Shown piece after piece: positions 1-9,009 of a stretch of 64,000 nt of DNA; position 1 is the first letter of the stretch, and each line of letters starts with the position of its first letter. The translations under genes were made by a program, and so were the position numbers. Origin of the DNA: Lysobacterales bacterium. Its GTDB lineage: Bacteria > Pseudomonadota > Gammaproteobacteria > Xanthomonadales > BPKI01. The notes below the pieces were generated by a model. That model had not been told where the DNA came from. It did not search any database and was given only the letters and a program-made list of their open reading frames with translations. The stretch is from NCBI GenBank assembly GCA_026005055.1, contig BPKI01000001.1, positions 2,371,608 to 2,435,607 of the forward strand. The letters are read 5' to 3'.

Positions 1-1297
<1,297 letters not shown>

Positions 1298-1488
1298 GTG
1301 GAAATCCCCCTGACGCGTGTGATCGTTTCGATTCCTATCCTATGCCCGCCGGGTGGAACAGGGAACGCGGCGCGGGGCCGCGATTCCCCCCTCGTCCAGT
1401 TCTCATTCAGCAACAGCTTACGCCCGGACCTTGTCTTCGCCCATATCGCTCATCGCCTCGCGGGCACCGACGGGCGCTTCTTGCCGCC

Positions 1489-2187
1489 TCAGCCGCCTCC
1501 CGCCGGCGGTGTACGCAGCAACGCGGTGATGCCCCGTGCCGTCTCCTCGATCCGGGCACGACCCACGGCCTCGTCTGCCGTGCTCGGTCCGGGAAGCCGC
1601 AGGAACCAGCCGGCGCCGATCTTCTCGCCGTCAGGAAAACGCCGCACATCGATGCGCAAGCTCGCGCTCGCAGCCGACCCTCGGGACGGCTCTGCGCTCA
1701 CCGCGAGCAACCAGTCGGCGGCGCTCTGGTGGCGCGCCAGGATCCGCGGCAAGTCGGCATCGCCATCCGCGCTGCCGAGCTCGATGACCGTCCATCCTTC
1801 CCTCGCCAAGGCCTCCGAAAGGATCCTGCACGCAGCCCCGGCGAGCTCGGCATCGCCGAAGCAAAGCAGGGCGATCCGCCCGCCGCCACCGGCCCCTCGC
1901 GCTTCCGTCCGGCTCGCATCGCGCGCTTGACTGTGCTCAGCCTCAGGCTTCGCCGTCGCATCCGCGCGCGGCGCGATCGGTCGCCCCTCCGACACCGCGG
2001 CGATGCGCTGCTGACGCTCCGCGCCAGCCGCACGCACCGTCCACTCCAAATGCTCGCGGTACGCCATCCAAAACAGGGGGATCGACAACAGGAAAGGCGA
2101 AAAACGCCAATCGCTAGCTGAACCAGGTCTCAGCATTCCCTGCCCAAATCCGTACGGTCCTTGATGGAACGAACGCTCCTCCTCCAT
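1489..2187 (-). CDS. Membrane-anchored protein with a TolB-N-like C-terminal domain (outer copy, called B1 here)
   Basis: 232-aa ORF with a short hydrophobic segment (FSPFLLSIPLFWMAY) and an acidic/Ala-rich linker. The C-terminal domain reads RIALLCFGD..GWTVIEL..DWLLAVS..LRIDVRRFPDGEKIGAGWF. It is clearly paralogous to the C-terminus of 2267-3160. The start is uncertain; an alternative Met lies at 2136. Confidence 0.6.
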   Translation of the reverse strand: MEEERSFHQGPYGFGQGMLRPGSASDWRFSPFLLSIPLFWMAYREHLEWTVRAAGAERQQRIAAVSEGRPIAPRADATAKPEAEHSQARDASRTEARGAGGGGRIALLCFGDAELAGAACRILSEALAREGWTVIELGSADGDADLPRILARHQSAADWLLAVSAEPSRGSAASASLRIDVRRFPDGEKIGAGWFLRLPGPSTADEAVGRARIEETARGITALLRTPPAGGG

Positions 2188-2266
2188 GAAGCCAAGGCAT
2201 CAGGGCGACTCGCCCGTTCTCCTGAGAAGCGCCGCCGCTCCGCGCCGACCATCACCTGGGAGCGCT

Positions 2267-3160
2267 TCAGCCTGAATTTCTTCCGAGCAGACCGAAAACC
2301 TGTGCAGCAATGTCGCGATATCGGGACACCGGAACCGCATTACCTTCCAGTCTCTGCTCATCAATCCGCATGAACCATCCGGCACCCATGCGTTCACCAC
2401 TCGGCATCCGTAGAACCTCGATCCGGAAATTTCCCTTGCGATTGCCTGGTAAACCCTCGCCTTGCGCTGTCAAGATCGCCAGGAAATCAACCTCGGACCG
2501 ATAACGCGCCGTCAGACGTCCAAAGTCAGGCGCATTCATTTGATCCTCGACCTCGAGTGCGATTACCGTCCAGCCCTGATCCCGTCCTGCTTGCTCCAAC
2601 GACTCCACTGCCGTTGCCGTCCAATCTCGCGCGCCGTACGCGAGGATGCCCAACTTGCGCCCTCCGCCCGTCCTCTTCGCTTGTTGATCCTTCTCCAACG
2701 CGGCAGCATGCGGCAAACGGCTCGCCTCGCCGGCACCCTGAGCCGGCCCCTTCTCCGCCATCGGAAACCTAACCACACTCGATCGCTCATATTCCCCACC
2801 TTTATTCTGTTGATGCCCGGCCACAGGCACCCCACCCTCCCCCTTTGCTGTTCCATGCCTCGGAGTCGTCACCCCACTACCCACGTTCCGAACTGGCACA
2901 CCAATCTCCGCCTTGTGACCAAACGAATCCCCCTCGACCGTCCTTTCACCACCGCCAGATTCGCTCACGGCGGCCGATGCTAAAGCTTTCTCCGCCGTAG
3001 CTTTCCGAATGGCTTGCACTTCGATCCAAAAGGTCACGAGCCAAACTAAACCCAAAAGGACTGGGGTTAAAGTGGTAATCGCAAAACCAATGGGCAAGAC
3101 TTTCGAATAATCCATTCCTACCGTGGCACCGCTCGCCTCTCTGTTCCCATCCGGAACCAT
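2267..3160 (-). CDS. Membrane-anchored protein with a TolB-N-like C-terminal domain (inner, low-GC copy, called B2 here)
   Basis: 297-aa ORF with TM VLPIGFAITTLTPVLLGLVWLVTFWI and a long Gly/Glu/Lys-rich linker. The C-terminal domain reads KLGILAYGA..GWTVIALE..DFLAILT..FRIEVLRMPSGERMGAGWF. The ATG at 3160 lies 3 nt after the upstream gene's TAG, with a GGAGAGGGGGG Shine-Dalgarno inside that gene's 3' end. Confidence 0.65.
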   Translation of the reverse strand: MVPDGNREASGATVGMDYSKVLPIGFAITTLTPVLLGLVWLVTFWIEVQAIRKATAEKALASAAVSESGGGERTVEGDSFGHKAEIGVPVRNVGSGVTTPRHGTAKGEGGVPVAGHQQNKGGEYERSSVVRFPMAEKGPAQGAGEASRLPHAAALEKDQQAKRTGGGRKLGILAYGARDWTATAVESLEQAGRDQGWTVIALEVEDQMNAPDFGRLTARYRSEVDFLAILTAQGEGLPGNRKGNFRIEVLRMPSGERMGAGWFMRIDEQRLEGNAVPVSRYRDIAAQVFGLLGRNSG

Positions 3161-3163
3161 CTT

Positions 3164-4459
3164 CTAGCCCCCCTCTCCGCGCATTGCCAACGCCAACTCC
3201 CGAATCAGCGCGAGATAGCGCTCACGGGGATACTGTGGATCGATCATGCGTATCCTAAGCAACATGTCGGGATGCGTCGAAAAAATACCGCGAGCAAAAT
3301 GAACTAACCTATACCATAGCCATTCAAACGCCCCGAACAAAGTGACCCTTAGACGACCCATCTTTGCCCAAAACCCCCTGCTGCGATAATGTCCTCGTTT
3401 CAAAACGATCCATTCTTTAGCACTGTAATACCTAGCAACCATATCCGACGCCGCAAGCGGATAGTCGATCATCAGCGCCGCGTAATTCGGATTTTCCGCT
3501 AGCGGGGTTGGCCGACGCGCAAGAACAATTTTTTCAAAAGCGCTGACCAATGCCTGTGGCTGACGGGTAAACTGTACCGCTGCCAGATCGGCGCGAAACT
3601 CCTGTCGCCGCGAATGCACAAAGTACAATATATGCGCGCCAACAACGCCCACAAAACCGATCATGCGCCACAATAGCGCCAGCAACCAAAAAGGCGCCAA
3701 TATAAGCATCAAGCCGAGGCTCACGCCCGCACGTGTCGACGGAACTTCAGTTCGACTAACGACAGTGCCATCCCGAACGTAGACCACTTCGTACGACGGT
3801 TTCGAAGCAATGATTGCAGCAAGGAAGAGGTATATCTTATTGAGAACCTTAGACAACCAGCGCCCGACAGAATACAGTGCGTGAAGGCCGGAAGAAACCG
3901 CTAAAAGATAAGACCCATCACGCGTGTCACCATAACGCAAATGTCCGAATTCATGCGCCATTACCGCTCGCAATTCGTCATCCGTCAAATGCTCCAGGGC
4001 CCCCGAGGTCGCGGCAACGGCTGATCCGTCCAGGTACACGCCACTGGCGAAAGCATTGATCGTTTGGTCGGGAATTATATATACGTCTGGCTTCGCGGGA
4101 AGATTGGCAGCCAAAGACACCTCTTCAACGATCCGTAGGAGCCGTTTTTGCTGCGGGTCATTCGTCCCAGGTTCTATCTTTTGACCGCCCAGCTCGACCG
4201 CCACTGCTCCGCCATCGGCGGCAATCTTGCTCATCGTCCAAAACGCGACGCCGCCAACGATGAGTCCAGCGATAATCATCGACAAGGGAGGAGCGATGAG
4301 AAAAATATCTGGGAACGCCAGCCCAATGATCGTCGAAATGAACGGCATGATGGCGAGAACGGTCAGATTGACGATGAACAAAAAGGCGATGACCGTGATC
4401 AGCGCCTGCCGGCTACGACGCCTCTGATCGGTGAAAAAGTCGACCGTCACTCGTTGCAT
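3164..4459 (-). CDS. M48-family (HtpX-like) integral-membrane zinc metallopeptidase (inner, low-GC copy, called A1 here)
   Basis: N-terminus MQRVTVDFFTDQRRRSRQ followed by 2 TM segments. HEFGHLRYGD provides the HExxH motif, two further TMs follow, and then RRQEFRADLAA (third-ligand Glu region). The start at 4459 was chosen over 4576 because of an AGGGGGGAG Shine-Dalgarno and the parallel with the paralogue. Confidence 0.8.
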   Translation of the reverse strand: MQRVTVDFFTDQRRRSRQALITVIAFLFIVNLTVLAIMPFISTIIGLAFPDIFLIAPPLSMIIAGLIVGGVAFWTMSKIAADGGAVAVELGGQKIEPGTNDPQQKRLLRIVEEVSLAANLPAKPDVYIIPDQTINAFASGVYLDGSAVAATSGALEHLTDDELRAVMAHEFGHLRYGDTRDGSYLLAVSSGLHALYSVGRWLSKVLNKIYLFLAAIIASKPSYEVVYVRDGTVVSRTEVPSTRAGVSLGLMLILAPFWLLALLWRMIGFVGVVGAHILYFVHSRRQEFRADLAAVQFTRQPQALVSAFEKIVLARRPTPLAENPNYAALMIDYPLAASDMVARYYSAKEWIVLKRGHYRSRGFWAKMGRLRVTLFGAFEWLWYRLVHFARGIFSTHPDMLLRIRMIDPQYPRERYLALIRELALAMRGEGG

Positions 4460-4922
4460 GGCTCCCCCCTTTGGTGCGCGACTTCCAATCGGACTTTCCC
4501 CTCCACTCGCTGAGCACGGCCTGCAGGCTGGCTCCAATGCGAGAGACGCTAACAGCATCAGACTAGAGAGCAGCATGACTCTCTGTCAACTATGCGAATG
4601 ACGAAGGGTCCTTCAAAACGTCGCCTCGGCGAAGTGTTTTTGCAATTTGTTGCATCGCAGCTGGGTCGTCGTCATTGTCGCGCTGGTACACGCTCCTTCA
4701 CGTCAGGAGCCGATGATTTTTCCCTGCGGCCGGTGTTCGGCCATCGCTCGCGGCGGAGCAAGGGTGCGAACGATCGCATCGCTTGCGATCGTCGATCAAC
4801 GTGAGGAATTTGGCAGAGTCCGAGGAAGGAGGCGTCCCTCTGGCGCTGGATGCATCGAGCCATCGGCGACTTGCCTTCGATGCGAGCCAACGGTCGAGCG
4901 CGAGATGCAGAGGGCCCCGTGG

Positions 4923-6089
4923 TCACCAGCGATTCCGCGTTGGCAACCCGCCGAAACCGCGGCCGCCCGCGTCCTCCCAGGCGAGCTTCAGCCATTCGAC
5001 CAGGGAGAAATAGCGCGCCATGGCCGTTTGCCCGAGCACCCCGGCGTCGATCAGGAAATGGGCATATTCCGATCTCGGCGCGGCGCGAGGAGGCAGGCGG
5101 TGGAAAACGATCTTCTCGAATAGCCCGACGATCGCCGCGGGGTTGCGCACCATCTGCAGCGCGTAGGCATCCGCCCGGTACTCCATGGTCCGGCGACCGG
5201 CCATCACGAGGAGTCTCGCCGCCACCGCGCCGATGCCCGCGAGCAGGCGCCAGGACCAGGCAAAAAGCCACGGAAAGATGAGCAACAAGGCGGCCGCGCC
5301 GGAGGAGGTGGGCTCCTCACCACGGGTTCTGATGGGCGCCTCCTCGGCCCGTGCGCGATGCCAAACCCAGTAGGCCGCGCTCCAATCGCTCGGTCGGATG
5401 GAACGCCGGACGCCGAAGTCGTCGGACTTCACGACCGAGAACCACAACCACCGCGTGACCGCACGCCCGACACGGTAGAGCGCGGATAGGCCGCGGGCGG
5501 CGGCGAAGAGATAGCTGCTGTCGCGGCAGTCACCGTAGCGAAGATGTCCGAACTCGTGCGCGACGAGCGCCGTGAGCTCCTCCCGCGAAAGCTGCTCGAG
5601 CGCACCCACGGTGACCCCGACCGCGAGGCGGTCGATGCGCACCCCCGCCGCCAAAGCATTGATCGACCCTGAGGGCAGCACATAGACGTCGGGAAGATAA
5701 GGCATCTGCGAGGCGATGGTGAGCTCCTCGACGACGTTCTGAAGCACCCGCGCCTGTCGCCCGTCCTCGTAGTCCTCGAGCGGAATCCCGCCGAGATCAC
5801 GGCAGACCGATCCACCGTCCCGCCTCAGCCGGTAAAAGGCCAGCAGCGTCGCGAAAGCCACCAGCGCGCCGACGATCAGCACGCTCAACGGCCAAACGTA
5901 GTTGATGAGGGGTATCGCCTTGCGATCGAAGTCGGCGAACAGCAGGACGAAAACCATGATGAAGACCGCGAGGACGAAGGTGATCGCCCACACCGTCACA
6001 TTCACCAGCACGAAGAAGAGGAGCGCAAGGAAAATCGCTTGCCGATTGCGCTGTCGCTGGATCGCGAAGAAATCCGCCGTCGCACGCAT
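4923..6089 (-). CDS. M48-family (HtpX-like) integral-membrane zinc metallopeptidase (outer copy, called A2 here)
   Basis: MRATADFFAIQRQRNRQ followed by 2 TM segments, HEFGHLRYGD, further TMs, and RRTMEYRADAYA. It is paralogous to 3164-4459 along its whole length. The start at 6089 is supported by a GGGGGGAG Shine-Dalgarno. Confidence 0.8.
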   Translation of the reverse strand: MRATADFFAIQRQRNRQAIFLALLFFVLVNVTVWAITFVLAVFIMVFVLLFADFDRKAIPLINYVWPLSVLIVGALVAFATLLAFYRLRRDGGSVCRDLGGIPLEDYEDGRQARVLQNVVEELTIASQMPYLPDVYVLPSGSINALAAGVRIDRLAVGVTVGALEQLSREELTALVAHEFGHLRYGDCRDSSYLFAAARGLSALYRVGRAVTRWLWFSVVKSDDFGVRRSIRPSDWSAAYWVWHRARAEEAPIRTRGEEPTSSGAAALLLIFPWLFAWSWRLLAGIGAVAARLLVMAGRRTMEYRADAYALQMVRNPAAIVGLFEKIVFHRLPPRAAPRSEYAHFLIDAGVLGQTAMARYFSLVEWLKLAWEDAGGRGFGGLPTRNRW

Positions 6090-6278
6090 GCTCCCCCCTT
6101 CGTCCTGGCAGCGAGCGCTCCCCGAGAGGCGCCGTTCCGCATGGCCTACCCGAGGAATCGTAGTCGCCGGTCCGCCTGCGATCAACGAGGCAGGACCGCA
6201 GGAATCGCCGCTCCTCGGCAGCCCCCCAAAAAAAGGGGCGCCCGGATGGGCGCCCCTCAGCCGATCGCTGGTGAGGAA

Positions 6279-7610
6279 TCAGCTCAGCCGCCGGTAGGCC
6301 ACGAAGCCGCCGACCAGCAGCGTGAGCAGGCCGAGCAGGTACCAGCCCCAGGCCGAGCCGGCCGGCACCGGCCGCGGCGGCGGCACCAGCGAGCCCGCGG
6401 GGCAGGTGACGTCATAAGTGAAGGTCTGCGGCGTGGCCTCACGATCATTGATCGTGCAGGTGACGGTGCCCGACTGCGGCGCCGCGGTCAGGGTGCAGCC
6501 CACCGTGAAGCCGGACGGGCTCGGCGTCGAGGTGCCCGGCGGCACGGTGATCGAGGCCGGGGTCACCGTGATCGGCGGGGTCGCCGTGCAGCTCGCCGTG
6601 GCGTTGGCGGCACCGGTCTCGCCCGGCGTCACCACCGTGAGCGGCAGCGTCGAGGTGACCGTGTTGCCCACGAAGCCGCCCGGCAGGGTGATCGGCCCGC
6701 TCGGCGGCAGGTTCAGATCCGCCGGCAGCGCGCCGGGGCAGGTGAGGTCATACCACTCGCTCCGAGGACCGCCCTGGTCGTTGACCCGGCACTCAAGCTG
6801 AGCACTGCGCGGGTTCGGACCGCGGTTGCATTGCACCGTGAAGGGCTCCGTGCGCGGGGTGCCGGCGGTGTAGGTGATCGGGAAGATCACCGCCGGGTTG
6901 AAGGAGAAATGCGCCGCATCGGGACCCAAGAAGGTGCAGTCGATGATCTGCCCGTTCGGGCCGCCGGGATCGCCCGGATTTCCGCCAGGCGCCGCCGAGG
7001 TGGCCGTGATGGTCGTGGTCGCGATGCCTGGCGAGGAGGGCGTCAGGGTGATCGGAAAGCCCGGCCCCGCCGGATTACCGTCCGGCGTGAAGCCGATCGT
7101 CGGCGCCTGCAGGGCGACGCGTTGATACTCCCACGGCACACCGGCTCGATTACAGGGCATGAAACCGAGCGGGTGCGCGCACTCGATGAACTCCTCGACG
7201 AAGGCATTCACGTCCGGACCACCCGGCGCGATGGTCAGCGCGAACTGACAGTACGCCGTCGGCGTTGACGTCAGAGGCGTTCCGCCTCCGCTCGGCGGGA
7301 TGATCCGCAGGCGCCGAGTGTTCGGTGCCGCGCAGGGCGCCGCGGAAACCTGATCGGCGCAGACCGAGCCCGGCACGAGGACGGTCGGCGTCACGCCGGT
7401 GATGATCGAGGGGTTGTAGCAGATGTCGAGCTGCGCATCCTCGGTCACACCGTCTCCGGCAAAGAGGTACTGCACGGTCACGGTTCCGCCGCTGGTCGAC
7501 GGCACGGTGATCGGATTGGTGTTCGTCGAGAACGTGCCCGCCTGCGCCCCACCCGCGAAGATCGCGAGCGACAGCGCGGCGGTGACGGCGAGTGAGAGCG
7601 GTCTGGTCAT
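6279..7610 (-). CDS. Secreted surface protein with an N-terminal cohesin-like module, Cys-bracketed Ig-like repeats and an IPTL-CTERM-like sorting tail
   Basis: Signal peptide MTRPLSLAVTAALSLAIFAGGAQA. The N-terminal module reads GDGVTEDAQLDICYNPS..RRLRIIPPSGGGTPL..YCQF..EEFIECAHP and is shared with 7681-8127. Pro/Thr/Gly-rich repeats contain paired Cys. The C-terminus is PVPAGSAWGWYLLGLLTLLVGGFVAYRRLS, i.e. motif, TM and basic tail. Confidence 0.7.
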   Translation of the reverse strand: MTRPLSLAVTAALSLAIFAGGAQAGTFSTNTNPITVPSTSGGTVTVQYLFAGDGVTEDAQLDICYNPSIITGVTPTVLVPGSVCADQVSAAPCAAPNTRRLRIIPPSGGGTPLTSTPTAYCQFALTIAPGGPDVNAFVEEFIECAHPLGFMPCNRAGVPWEYQRVALQAPTIGFTPDGNPAGPGFPITLTPSSPGIATTTITATSAAPGGNPGDPGGPNGQIIDCTFLGPDAAHFSFNPAVIFPITYTAGTPRTEPFTVQCNRGPNPRSAQLECRVNDQGGPRSEWYDLTCPGALPADLNLPPSGPITLPGGFVGNTVTSTLPLTVVTPGETGAANATASCTATPPITVTPASITVPPGTSTPSPSGFTVGCTLTAAPQSGTVTCTINDREATPQTFTYDVTCPAGSLVPPPRPVPAGSAWGWYLLGLLTLLVGGFVAYRRLS

Positions 7611-7680
7611 GATGAGCACTCCTTCCCTTCAGGGGCCAAAAAAAACGATACCGCAGCGAGGATTTTTTTGGAGCTGCGGT

Positions 7681-8127
7681 TCAACGCGACTCGGAGACGT
7701 CGAGGACGCGGTACTCACACGCGTGCATCCCGGTGGGCGAGGCACACTCGATGAACTCGTGGCGAAAGGCCGCGGAAGCATCCCCTTTGCTCAGATTCGC
7801 GCGGAAGAGGAACGAGCAGTACTCGACCGGCTTGACCGGGAGCGGCGTACCCCCGCCGGTGGGAGGGACGATGCGGATCGCCCGCTTGTTCTTCATCAGC
7901 ACGCAGACCGATCCATCGACGATCGTCTTGGCCGAGACGAACTCGAGCGACTCGTCGAAACCCAGATCGAGCTGGGCATCTTCGGTGACGCCGTCCCCCT
8001 GGAAAGTCACCAGGACGGTGACGCTACGACCTTTCTCGTGACCGGCCCAGACTTCGAACTGTCCCGCCGAAGCGCCCTGAGCCGATGCAACACCGATGAG
8101 CGCAGTGATCAATGGAAGATGACGCAT
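7681..8127 (-). CDS. Small secreted protein consisting of a single cohesin-like module
   Basis: Signal peptide MRHLPLITALIGVASAQGASA. The module reads VTVLVTFQGDGVTEDAQLDLGFDESLEFVSAKTIVDGSVC..IRIVPPTGGGTPL..YCSF..HEFIECASP. It is homologous to the N-terminal module of 6279-7610. The core resembles the cohesin signature (xQFDLxYDPxxLEFVSVxxG). Confidence 0.65.
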   Translation of the reverse strand: MRHLPLITALIGVASAQGASAGQFEVWAGHEKGRSVTVLVTFQGDGVTEDAQLDLGFDESLEFVSAKTIVDGSVCVLMKNKRAIRIVPPTGGGTPLPVKPVEYCSFLFRANLSKGDASAAFRHEFIECASPTGMHACEYRVLDVSESR

Positions 8128-8145: not shown

Positions 8146-9009
8146 TCAGTTGCAGGTGGCGCTGGCGCTGAGCAGCGCGGTCACGCAGGAACGATCCGCG
8201 ACCGTGATCTGGCCGTCTTCGTTGCAGTCCGGCTGACCCGTCGCGGCATTGGACGGATTGTTGAGTTCTGCGGTGATCGCGCTCCGATCCGCGACGGTGA
8301 TGGTGTTGCTGCCGTTCGCATCGCCCCGGCACAGCCGCCCGATCGGGTTGCCCGCCGAGCGGGTGGACTCGTAGGCGTCGAAGCCGACGTTGGGCGAGCC
8401 CGAACCGCTGACGAAGCCCAGCCGCGCGAAGTCGATCGCCGCGCCGTTGGTGACGCTCAGGGTTTGGGTGTTCACCGTGTCACTGCCTCCGCCGCCGACC
8501 CGCACCCGCATCGTGTTCGCAGGGATGGGATCGGTGCCGGTGGTGGCCGTGGCGGTCGAGTTCATCGCCACCTCGACCGAATACCAGCGAGCCGCCGAGT
8601 TGATGGAGAAGTTGACCGGCGTGCCGCCGCGGTGGCGCACCTGGATCTCGTTGGTACCGCGGTTGACGATCACCTCGATCTCGTTGTTGTTGGTGTTGTT
8701 GCCGGCCTGATAAACGGTGGCGCTGCCCGAGGTGAGAGCGGTGAGGACGTAGAAGCGGGCGCGGAAGATCTGATCCGCGGCGGGGTCGTCGTTCTGGACG
8801 TAGTTGTTGGCAGCGCTCGCCCGCATCCCGCAGATGCCGCTGTAGCGGCGCACGGTGTTGTTGGTGTGGGCCGGACCGCCCGGCGTGGGCGAGCCGACGA
8901 TCGAGCCGTTCACGGTCCACGCGTTGAGCGTGCAGGCCTCGGCGCCGGACGCGAACAGCAACGCCGCGCCCACGGCGGCCGAGAGCAACGAAAATCTGGT
9001 CTTCGACAT
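8146..9009 (-). CDS. Secreted protein with a beta-rich N-terminal domain and a C-terminal dockerin-like double EF-hand repeat
   Basis: Signal peptide MSKTRFSLLSAAVGAALLFASGAEA. The C-terminus holds two 12-residue Ca-loop-like repeats, each followed by a helix: GDANGSNTITVADRSAITAEL and DCNEDGQITVADRSCVTALL. These fit a DxNxD/SGxxxxxD spacing. Confidence 0.7.
   Translation of the reverse strand: MSKTRFSLLSAAVGAALLFASGAEACTLNAWTVNGSIVGSPTPGGPAHTNNTVRRYSGICGMRASAANNYVQNDDPAADQIFRARFYVLTALTSGSATVYQAGNNTNNNEIEVIVNRGTNEIQVRHRGGTPVNFSINSAARWYSVEVAMNSTATATTGTDPIPANTMRVRVGGGGSDTVNTQTLSVTNGAAIDFARLGFVSGSGSPNVGFDAYESTRSAGNPIGRLCRGDANGSNTITVADRSAITAELNNPSNAATGQPDCNEDGQITVADRSCVTALLSASATCN

Follow-up and report, generated by a model that had tools for sequence, protein, structure and literature searches.

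A horizontally acquired pair of genes for an HtpX-like protease and a small membrane protein, inserted into a paralogous pair in a hot-spring Lysobacterales genome

The DNA considered here is a window of 64,000 nucleotides (nt) from the hot-spring metagenome-assembled genome "Lysobacterales bacterium KatS3mg125" (GenBank assembly GCA_026005055.1, contig BPKI01000001.1, positions 2,371,608 to 2,435,607 of the forward strand), and "the window" always means this whole stretch. Within its positions 1 to 6300, open reading frame (ORF) calls and translations give five minus-strand genes in the order A2, A1, B2, B1, and a Hanks-type kinase. A1 and A2 encode paralogous M48 zinc proteases related to HtpX, while B1 and B2 are paralogous members of an orphan family. 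As described below, A1-B2 is a horizontally acquired copy of a two-gene A-B unit that integrated into a resident copy at the A/B junction. Rather than two working nested pairs, the locus probably holds one intact pair (A1-B2) and two remnants (A2 and B1). Taken as a whole, the explanation developed here (a cassette inserted into its paralog, remnants left on either side, and A and B acting as a membrane module) is one we regard as reasonably probable. The features of the locus are as follows.

1 to 1297, minus strand: Hanks-type Ser/Thr kinase, partial, running past the window edge (translation, NCBIfam, hydropathy)
1489 to 2187, minus strand: B1, 5′-disrupted, probable remnant of the resident B gene (homology to the related contig L010, hydropathy, absent Shine-Dalgarno sequence)
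2113 to 4879, minus strand: inserted A1-B2 cassette, 2,767 bp, comprising left flank, A1, B2, and right flank (junctions against the related sequences L010, L011, and L001; GC content)
2267 to 3160, minus strand: B2, intact gene for the putative partner protein (ORF, hydropathy, AlphaFold2 [AF2] model, Foldseek, dN/dS)
3164 to 4459, minus strand: A1, intact gene for an HtpX-like M48 metalloprotease of 431 amino acids (aa) (Pfam, alignment, AF2 model, Foldseek)
4560 to 4591, minus strand: promoter-like element in the upstream flank of the cassette (sequence reading; conserved island)
4880 to 4944, minus strand: 65-nt unalignable patch at the 3′ end of A2 (comparison with L010 and L011)
4923 to 6089, minus strand: A2, 3′-truncated resident M48 gene, 388 aa (alignments against A1 and L010)
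6233 to 6258, minus strand: intrinsic-terminator-like hairpin (terminator scan)

The five co-directional genes lie where a first-pass annotation, made from the letters of the sequence alone, had placed them. The arrangement is real and not an artifact of assembly, since three independent Logan assemblies match the whole nested structure at 99.98 to 100% identity. The homologies proposed in that annotation have also held up. A1 and A2 are 39% identical (E = 5e-76), both match Pfam Peptidase_M48, and their alignment contains a common DFFxxQRxRxRQ N-terminal segment and an identical HEFGHLRYGD zinc site; both start codons are preceded, at 5 to 6 nt, by the Shine-Dalgarno (SD) context GGGGGGAG. 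In their C-terminal 123 aa, B1 and B2 share 32% identity (E = 5e-15). A1 and B2 are indeed spaced by 3 nt, with the SD of B2 (GAGAGGGGGG) lying within the 3′ end of A1. What did not survive is the equivalence of the two paralogous pairs: A2 and B1 are disrupted, and A1-B2 alone is intact.

How did one pair come to lie inside the other? The answer comes from L010, a related metagenome contig of 1,367 nt that carries an ortholog of B1 (P0004). Here, the 3′ end of an A2 ortholog overlaps the start of P0004 by ATGA, and the SD GAGGAGG precedes P0004. The A2 sequences of L010 and the window are 97.9% identical as far as ...GRGFGG, past which the L010 protein carries on as FLIRLLLLTAGPLLWLLLRGAHLMRELFATHPDTLKRIRAIDPTYPRERF...* and includes a helix, a THPD motif, and a YPRER tail, like A1. 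With its intact A2 tail overlapping an intact B1 start, L010 represents the uninterrupted A2-B1 operon. A second relative, L011, is identical to L010 through ...CTCCTCCGCGGGG (also given as ending in CTCCGCGGGG) and then passes into the cassette sequence found upstream of A1. At the right junction, homology between the window and L010 restarts at window position 2112, within the region of B1 that encodes its transmembrane (TM) helix. The cassette took the place of 216 bp of resident sequence (L010 350-565), which cost A2 its final 47 codons and B1 its first ~27, and it brought along 420 bp of upstream sequence unrelated to the resident locus. The kinase downstream of the resident operon is the same one in both alleles.

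Base composition sets the cassette apart as well. The GC content at third codon positions (GC3) is 0.586 in A1 and 0.577 in B2, versus 0.825 in A2, 0.76 to 0.80 in B1, 0.83 in the kinase, and 0.88 to 0.90 in neighboring genes. The cassette has a GC content of 0.56 and is the sole 1-kb stretch in the 64 kb that falls below 0.60. A1-B2 is a foreign insertion because an un-inserted allele exists in L010 and because A1 and B2 have this foreign GC3. The nested foreign cassette that the gene order had suggested at first reading is thereby upheld, but not the clean insertion between two genes, as the junctions lie within the coding sequence of both. Insertion of a cassette into its paralog, with both alleles preserved, is well supported and is not in itself a major surprise.

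Both resident genes have lost sequence. The A2 of the window stops at ...GRGFGGLPTRNRW*, with its last ~47 codons gone relative to the L010 ortholog. It retains HEFGH (nt 5544-5558) and the EYRAD glutamate and lacks both the extra helix and the C-terminal THPD...RIR.IDP.YPRER stretch found in A1 and in the A2 of L010. The missing C-terminal motif, THP(P/D)...R, is present in A1 and the L010 ortholog, and THP is almost invariant in an alignment of 24 M48 sequences; the window A2 ends short of it. A 65-nt patch at 4880-4944, in which the premature A2 stop codon lies, cannot be aligned to L010 or L011; its flanks are ~98% identical on one side and clearly cassette-homologous on the other.

In B1, native sequence spans 1489-2112 only, with the C-terminal domain at ~1492-1890. 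The first ~25 to 28 residues are non-native, the native start codon, SD, and half of the TM helix having been lost, and no SD stands ahead of the ATG at 2187. No segment of B1 rises above the Kyte-Doolittle hydrophobicity threshold, which both P0004 and B2 pass, so the description of the B proteins as membrane tethered applies to B2 and not to B1 as encoded in the window. In the related allele L001, a stop codon interrupts the B1 frame 8 codons upstream of the junction. The homopolymer at the right junction is T5 in the window (~2096-2100) and T6 in L001 (~1607-1612), and on this difference depends whether the B1 remnant can be read in frame from an upstream ATG. As T6 in place of T5 gives the stop in L001, the long B1 ORF of the window is probably fortuitous. 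A likeness of the new B1 N terminus to native B N termini ("MxEER...PxGF") was considered and put down to chance (tblastn, non-significant). Judging from these losses, A2 and B1 are probably inactive remnants.

The cassette itself has a mosaic history. Compared with the related alleles (L011/L001), identity is 62 to 71% in the left flank, 94 to 99% over A1 codons 1 to 350, 65 to 88% in the A1 tail and B2, and 97 to 98% in the 3′ end of B2 and the right flank. The synonymous divergence, dS, follows the same course, at 0.02 to 0.03 for A1 codons 1 to 240 and 0.4 to 1.1 for the A1 tail and B2. Because dS tracks identity along the cassette, these differences point to recombination among divergent cassette alleles in which the A tail and B were swapped together. 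The ratio of nonsynonymous to synonymous divergence (dN/dS) of B2 against the related alleles is 0.07 in the TM helix, 0.67 in the linker, and 0.15 in the domain. The helix and domain, with dN/dS of 0.07 to 0.15 at a dS of 0.9 to 1.1, are under purifying selection. Accelerated evolution or positive selection on B2 was also entertained and is ruled out by a dS of 0.5 to 1.1 with dN/dS of 0.07 to 0.15 in the structured parts. The high divergence of B2 points to allelic recombination and not to adaptive change in the protein.

What kind of protease is A? Against Pfam Peptidase_M48 (PF01435; cutoff, 20.3 bits), A1 scores 91.9 bits (E = 5.7e-26) and A2 57.9 bits (E = 1.6e-15), so the peptidase assignment made at first reading stands above the gathering threshold for both. 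The sequence AHEFGHLRYGD is identical in the two, and H169, E170, H173, E287, and D291 are invariant in the 24 aligned M48 sequences, A1 and A2 included. In A1, HEFGH is encoded at nt 3941-3955, T395, H396, P397, and R402 make up the C-terminal motif, and the YPRER tail is present. The AF2 model of A1 (mean predicted local distance difference test [pLDDT] score, 83) has TM1 at residues 8-48, TM2 at 56-79, the HExxH helix at 160-175 in a catalytic subdomain, TM3 at 178-218, and TM4, which bears E287, at 243-298. Two elements are specific to the family, a beta-hairpin loop at 224-238 and a long hydrophobic helix at 363-392; the helix is followed by the THP motif and then by two C-terminal helices. 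Foldseek matches the model to HtpX (3cqb), Ste24/ZMPSTE24, and BlaR1.

HtpX, an M48B protease of inner-membrane quality control, is the obvious point of comparison. It belongs to the same Pfam family, has its catalytic domain between the second and third of four TM helices, and, as the fragment 3cqb, is the best solved-structure match of A1 (36% identity; TM-score of 0.80 on the target). The catalytic domain of HtpX is cytoplasmic. The K/R-rich N terminus of A, together with its hydropathy, would place the catalytic domain of A in the cytoplasm as well. A is, however, ~140 aa longer, and HtpX is not known to have a dedicated operon partner. A1 and A2 reach 109.8 and 84.5 bits against an NCBIfam HtpX equivalog cutoff of 355 bits (range of cutoffs, 245 to 422), and with a score of 110 versus 355, A is no HtpX ortholog.

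The nearest relatives of A are instead M48 proteins of 600 to 700 aa (27 to 33% identity; E values down to 1e-32), on which the first-pass annotation was silent. Their N-terminal motif, (D/N)FFxxQ...R, is kept in A (alignment; N termini from 30 loci). In 28 of 30 loci from GTDB species representatives, a gene for LemA stands directly upstream of the long M48 gene; one of the other two has LemA 1.8 kb off, and one has none. The same placement is seen in all four metagenome loci with a visible upstream side. This long-form module (GTDB loci L014 to L046) is widespread, occurring in Aquabacterium, other Burkholderiales, and gut Thermoguttaceae. The LemA-M48 pairs of Pseudomonadota and Planctomycetota have in common with A the order TM1-TM2, HExxH, TM3-TM4, E..AD, THP, and the protease is likewise paired with a gene for a small, single-pass, N-terminally anchored partner.

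There are also differences. A lacks the long C-terminal domain of these proteins, ~250 to 300 aa ending in a TerB-like segment, which is absent from A1, A2, and P0005 (P0013 gives a weak TerB match), and it has two insertions of its own, the TM3-TM4 beta-hairpin loop and the hydrophobic helix before THP. A also goes without LemA. A LemA hidden Markov model (HMM) finds nothing in six-frame translations of the window or of L006, a contig that extends past window position 1, and upstream of A2 are a predicted terminator and an unrelated gene. The putative partner of A is encoded downstream and is unrelated to LemA; B as a LemA homolog was rejected by the HMM search. Conversely, no short A-type form and no significant B-like gene occur among the 30 GTDB LemA-M48 loci, where the only match to a B profile is a non-significant one (E = 0.005; 12.9 bits) in an 822-aa ORF of L053. 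On sequence grounds, A is a short, divergent offshoot of the long (~640-aa) LemA-coupled M48 proteases, a new short branch of a known family. The literature searched yielded no functional study of LemA-M48 pairs or of HtpX partners.

The second protein, B, is harder to place. In B2, a TM helix (~residues 22-46) is followed by a low-complexity linker (~60-165) and an alpha/beta domain (166-297; nt 2270-2665). The first-pass annotation had likened the domain to TolB-N, FlgO, CsgG, and LpoB modules. At the level of sequence this does not hold: neither B1 nor B2 has a Pfam match at E ≤ 1, and none was found in NCBIfam, PADLOC, or PHROG (E ≤ 0.1 to 1). Word-index searches with B1 and B2 return only the query itself and one ortholog each (72% or 83% identity), an exhaustive HMMER profile search of 1.84 billion representatives returns only the two self clusters and a spurious repeat protein (P0094), and DNA-level scans of 185,579 species genomes (the source genome not among them) and of JGI metagenomes find no B. 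At the level of fold, the TolB-N-like guess is borne out by an AF2 model of the B2 domain (pLDDT, 82.3; predicted TM-score [pTM], 0.79; built on a shallow, 4-sequence alignment) and by Foldseek. The model has the order beta-alpha-beta-alpha-beta-beta-beta-alpha, and its matches are PelC (9h80_A; E = 3.7e-6), the TolB N-domain (8.5e-5), and GNA1162 (1e-3), along with the periplasmic domain of CadC and the anticodon-binding domains of class II aminoacyl-tRNA synthetases; these matches are moderate, with TM-scores of 0.46 to 0.55 and identities of 5 to 15%. By these searches and models, the fold of B is a known one, but the family is an orphan, new and found only in this hot-spring lineage.

PelC, the TolB N-domain, GNA1162, and CadC share the fold order of B and are likewise anchored to the membrane through a flexible linker. 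B differs in that its anchor is a single N-terminal TM helix and no lipobox is present, and in that no Pel or Tol genes lie nearby. By analogy with these fold relatives, most of which are periplasmic, and from its layout of TM helix, linker, and domain, the B domain is somewhat more apt to be periplasmic than cytoplasmic. Past position 1 of the window, L006 (14299-15948) carries a CsgG-like 418-aa ORF and a Pfam LpoB (PF13036) gene, convergent with the kinase; both belong to the same broad TolB-N-like class of envelope lipoprotein folds as the B domain.

Do A and B work together? Both pairs have the two genes side by side and translationally coupled (the ATGA overlap in L010 and the 3-nt spacer of A1-B2), neither family turns up in database searches without the other or outside this lineage, and one recombination block covers the A1 tail and B2. 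A and B thus behave, by comparison of these sequences, as a self-contained, translationally coupled, co-inherited, and co-transferred unit. The self-contained two-gene unit of the first-pass annotation is sustained by the overlap, the spacer, and the joint transfer with an upstream region of its own. The pairing is not described in the literature searched and is a variant of the theme of an M48 protease plus a small partner, restricted to a handful of hot-spring genomes that are close relatives.

The ancestral state, which L010 still shows, was a two-gene operon with an ATGA overlap. It encoded A, an HtpX-like M48 zinc protease of ~440 aa in the inner membrane, and a bitopic B in which a disordered linker connects a single N-terminal TM helix to an alpha/beta domain of ~130 aa. 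The divergent A1-B2 copy then arrived horizontally with its own upstream region and displaced the resident copy by disrupting it. A is predicted to have an HtpX-like topology, with the N terminus inside, TM1-TM2, a cytoplasmic HExxH...E...THP domain, and TM3-TM4. B may sit beside A through its TM helix as a dedicated partner, so that the two form one membrane module, and its role may be that of a regulator or sensor, or else of an adaptor or substrate of A. B would stand in for the LemA, and possibly also for the long C-terminal domain, of the relatives of A, and its TM helix may contact the A-specific helix 363-392 or loop 224-238.

If the B domain is periplasmic, the pair might work like a split sensor-protease of the BlaR1 type. 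BlaR1 and MecR1 (M56) belong to the same metalloprotease clan as A, and BlaR1 (8ext_A) ranks eighth in the Foldseek list for A1 (E = 0.069; prob, 0.89; TM-score, ~0.26). The logic, an extracytoplasmic sensor coupled across the membrane to a cytoplasmic zinc protease, is that proposed for A-B by analogy only; BlaR1 is one polypeptide with a penicillin-binding sensor, whereas A and B are two proteins. A fuller version of this idea is improbable. It would have a TolB-N-like extracytoplasmic domain, carried by a separate bitopic protein, gate a cytoplasmic HtpX-like protease via contacts between helices, in a system evolved from LemA-M48 by partner replacement, with paralogous modules so incompatible that an incoming cassette becomes fixed only on inactivating the resident.

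Several observations count against the account of a cassette inserted into its paralog and of A and B as a membrane module. (i) No signature of an insertion mechanism was found. Nothing by which a mobile element is recognized (terminal repeats or target-site duplication, a recombinase, a tRNA or attachment site) is seen at the cassette: its boundaries show no terminal or boundary repeats, there is no integrase or recombinase gene and no coding remnant in its flanks, and the 64-kb window has no tRNA and no Rfam match. (ii) Relative to L010, dN/dS is 0.07 in the A2 tail, on very few changes, and ~0.35 in B1, which is not fully neutral; constraint on A2 may have ended only lately, or a shortened A2 protein may still be made. 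(iii) The topology of B is equivocal. The K/R residues flanking its TM helix number 2 versus 3 in B2 and 4 versus 4 in P0004, which leaves the positive-inside rule ambiguous, and with a periplasmic B domain and a cytoplasmic A active site, any coupling has to pass via membrane helices. (iv) The A+B unit rests on two independent pairs from one lineage, beyond the reach of co-occurrence statistics.

These dN/dS values would suit a locus in which both pairs are intact and functional, nested by a clean intergenic insertion and perhaps under the control of the neighboring Hanks kinase. Each of the four ORFs is open and has a paralog at the locus, A2 still has HExxH and its glutamate ligand, and the kinase is co-directional, 191 nt downstream of B1, with no predicted terminator in between. 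But L010 largely refutes this by showing the junctions to be inside coding sequence, A2 is missing the near-invariant THP motif and the tail, B1 has neither its native start and SD nor a usable TM helix, and the kinase has an SD of its own, all of which makes working nested pairs very unlikely. An origin in situ, with the order A2-A1-B2-B1 produced by successive tandem duplications of A and B, is more unlikely still, to the point of being hardly credible. It would account for the A-A-B-B order, as expected from two single-gene duplications, and for the similar divergence of the A (39%) and B (32%) paralogs, but not for a GC3 of ~0.58 in A1 and B2 versus 0.76 to 0.83 in A2 and B1, nor for the 420 bp of unrelated upstream sequence carried by the cassette, nor for an un-inserted allele with intact gene ends. 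To derive L010 by a precise secondary deletion is implausible, its A tail being no chimera of A1.

The remaining alternatives concern function. A and B could be independent, B being a periplasmic envelope protein of the TolB-N/PelC/LpoB kind that hitchhikes in one operon with a housekeeping HtpX-like protease of quality control. Fold relatives of B do serve envelope assembly or export without proteases (the PelC ring is an example [PMC12141448]), the predicted cytoplasmic active site of A would be on the other side of the membrane from a possibly periplasmic B domain, and CsgG-like and LpoB-family genes lie a few kilobases off in L006. Against this, the coupling is conserved in pairs just 32 to 39% identical, A and B were transferred jointly and are equally narrow in distribution, and A is not a true HtpX ortholog; we consider independence unlikely. 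Still less favored is a conflict or competition module, in which the protease is an effector, B a tethered inhibitor or immunity protein, and the cassette was favored for knocking out a cross-reacting resident. Horizontal transfer, restriction to one lineage, allelic mosaicism with a divergent block of A tail and B, and insertion exactly in a paralogous locus would all fit. Neither A nor B has a PADLOC or PHROG match apart from generic M48 similarity, however, the neighbors are metabolic and secreted-protein genes and not a defense island, the divergence of B consists of high dS with purifying selection and not positive selection, and one insertion event cannot show targeting. We therefore think a conflict module quite unlikely and retain the cassette-and-remnants account with A and B as partners.

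L010 and the window are a natural before-and-after pair of alleles, in which the gene for the protease and that for its small partner are seen to travel, survive, and be displaced together. With the family confined to one lineage, this allele pair is the strongest comparative evidence to hand for a functional coupling of A and B. The link to LemA-M48 suggests that the partner can be exchanged for one of unrelated fold, and the role of the partner likely needs just a membrane anchor beside the protease. Should the partner model be true, A1-B2 would be a compact system for the regulation of an HtpX-like protease. The locus also carries a warning for annotation, as two of its four "genes" are probably remnants despite their open frames and good family matches.

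Upstream of A1, the cassette carries TTGACA (4589-4584) and, after an 18-nt gap, TAGTCT (4565-4560). L011 has TAAATT for TAGTCT, 18 nt downstream of TTGACA, and a 17-nt island, AGTTGACAGAGnGTCAT (window 4575-4591; L011 ~323-339), includes a perfect TTGACA and stands out as conserved in a flank with 62 to 71% identity elsewhere. A consensus promoter scan did not call the TTGACA/TAGTCT element. The island with TTGACA is, by inference only, a candidate promoter or operator of the cassette.

The kinase matches a PknB-like NCBIfam model (E = 4.9e-95, but below the family cutoff) and consists of the kinase domain, one TM helix (~residues 342-375) joined to it by a linker, and the low-complexity start of an extracytoplasmic region. 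A search of L006 in six frames with the B profile gave nothing, and L006 is frameshift-rich from the kinase onward.

At the other end of the operon, the terminator-like hairpin at 6233-6258 is a strong one, with an 11-bp stem, 9 G-C pairs, and a T-run, and immediately precedes the A2 promoter region. It would divide a secreted-protein gene from A2 and mark the start of the A-B transcription unit. Upstream of the operon are three genes for secreted proteins on the minus strand (6279-7619, 7681-8127, and 8146-9009). An N-terminal domain of ~135 aa, for which Pfam and NCBIfam give no match, is common to the 446-aa and 148-aa proteins (42% identity; E = 1e-27). The last residues of the 446-aa protein form a hydrophobic helix and then RR, reminiscent of a C-terminal anchor. 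The 287-aa protein matches dockerin type I (E = 3.7e-5).

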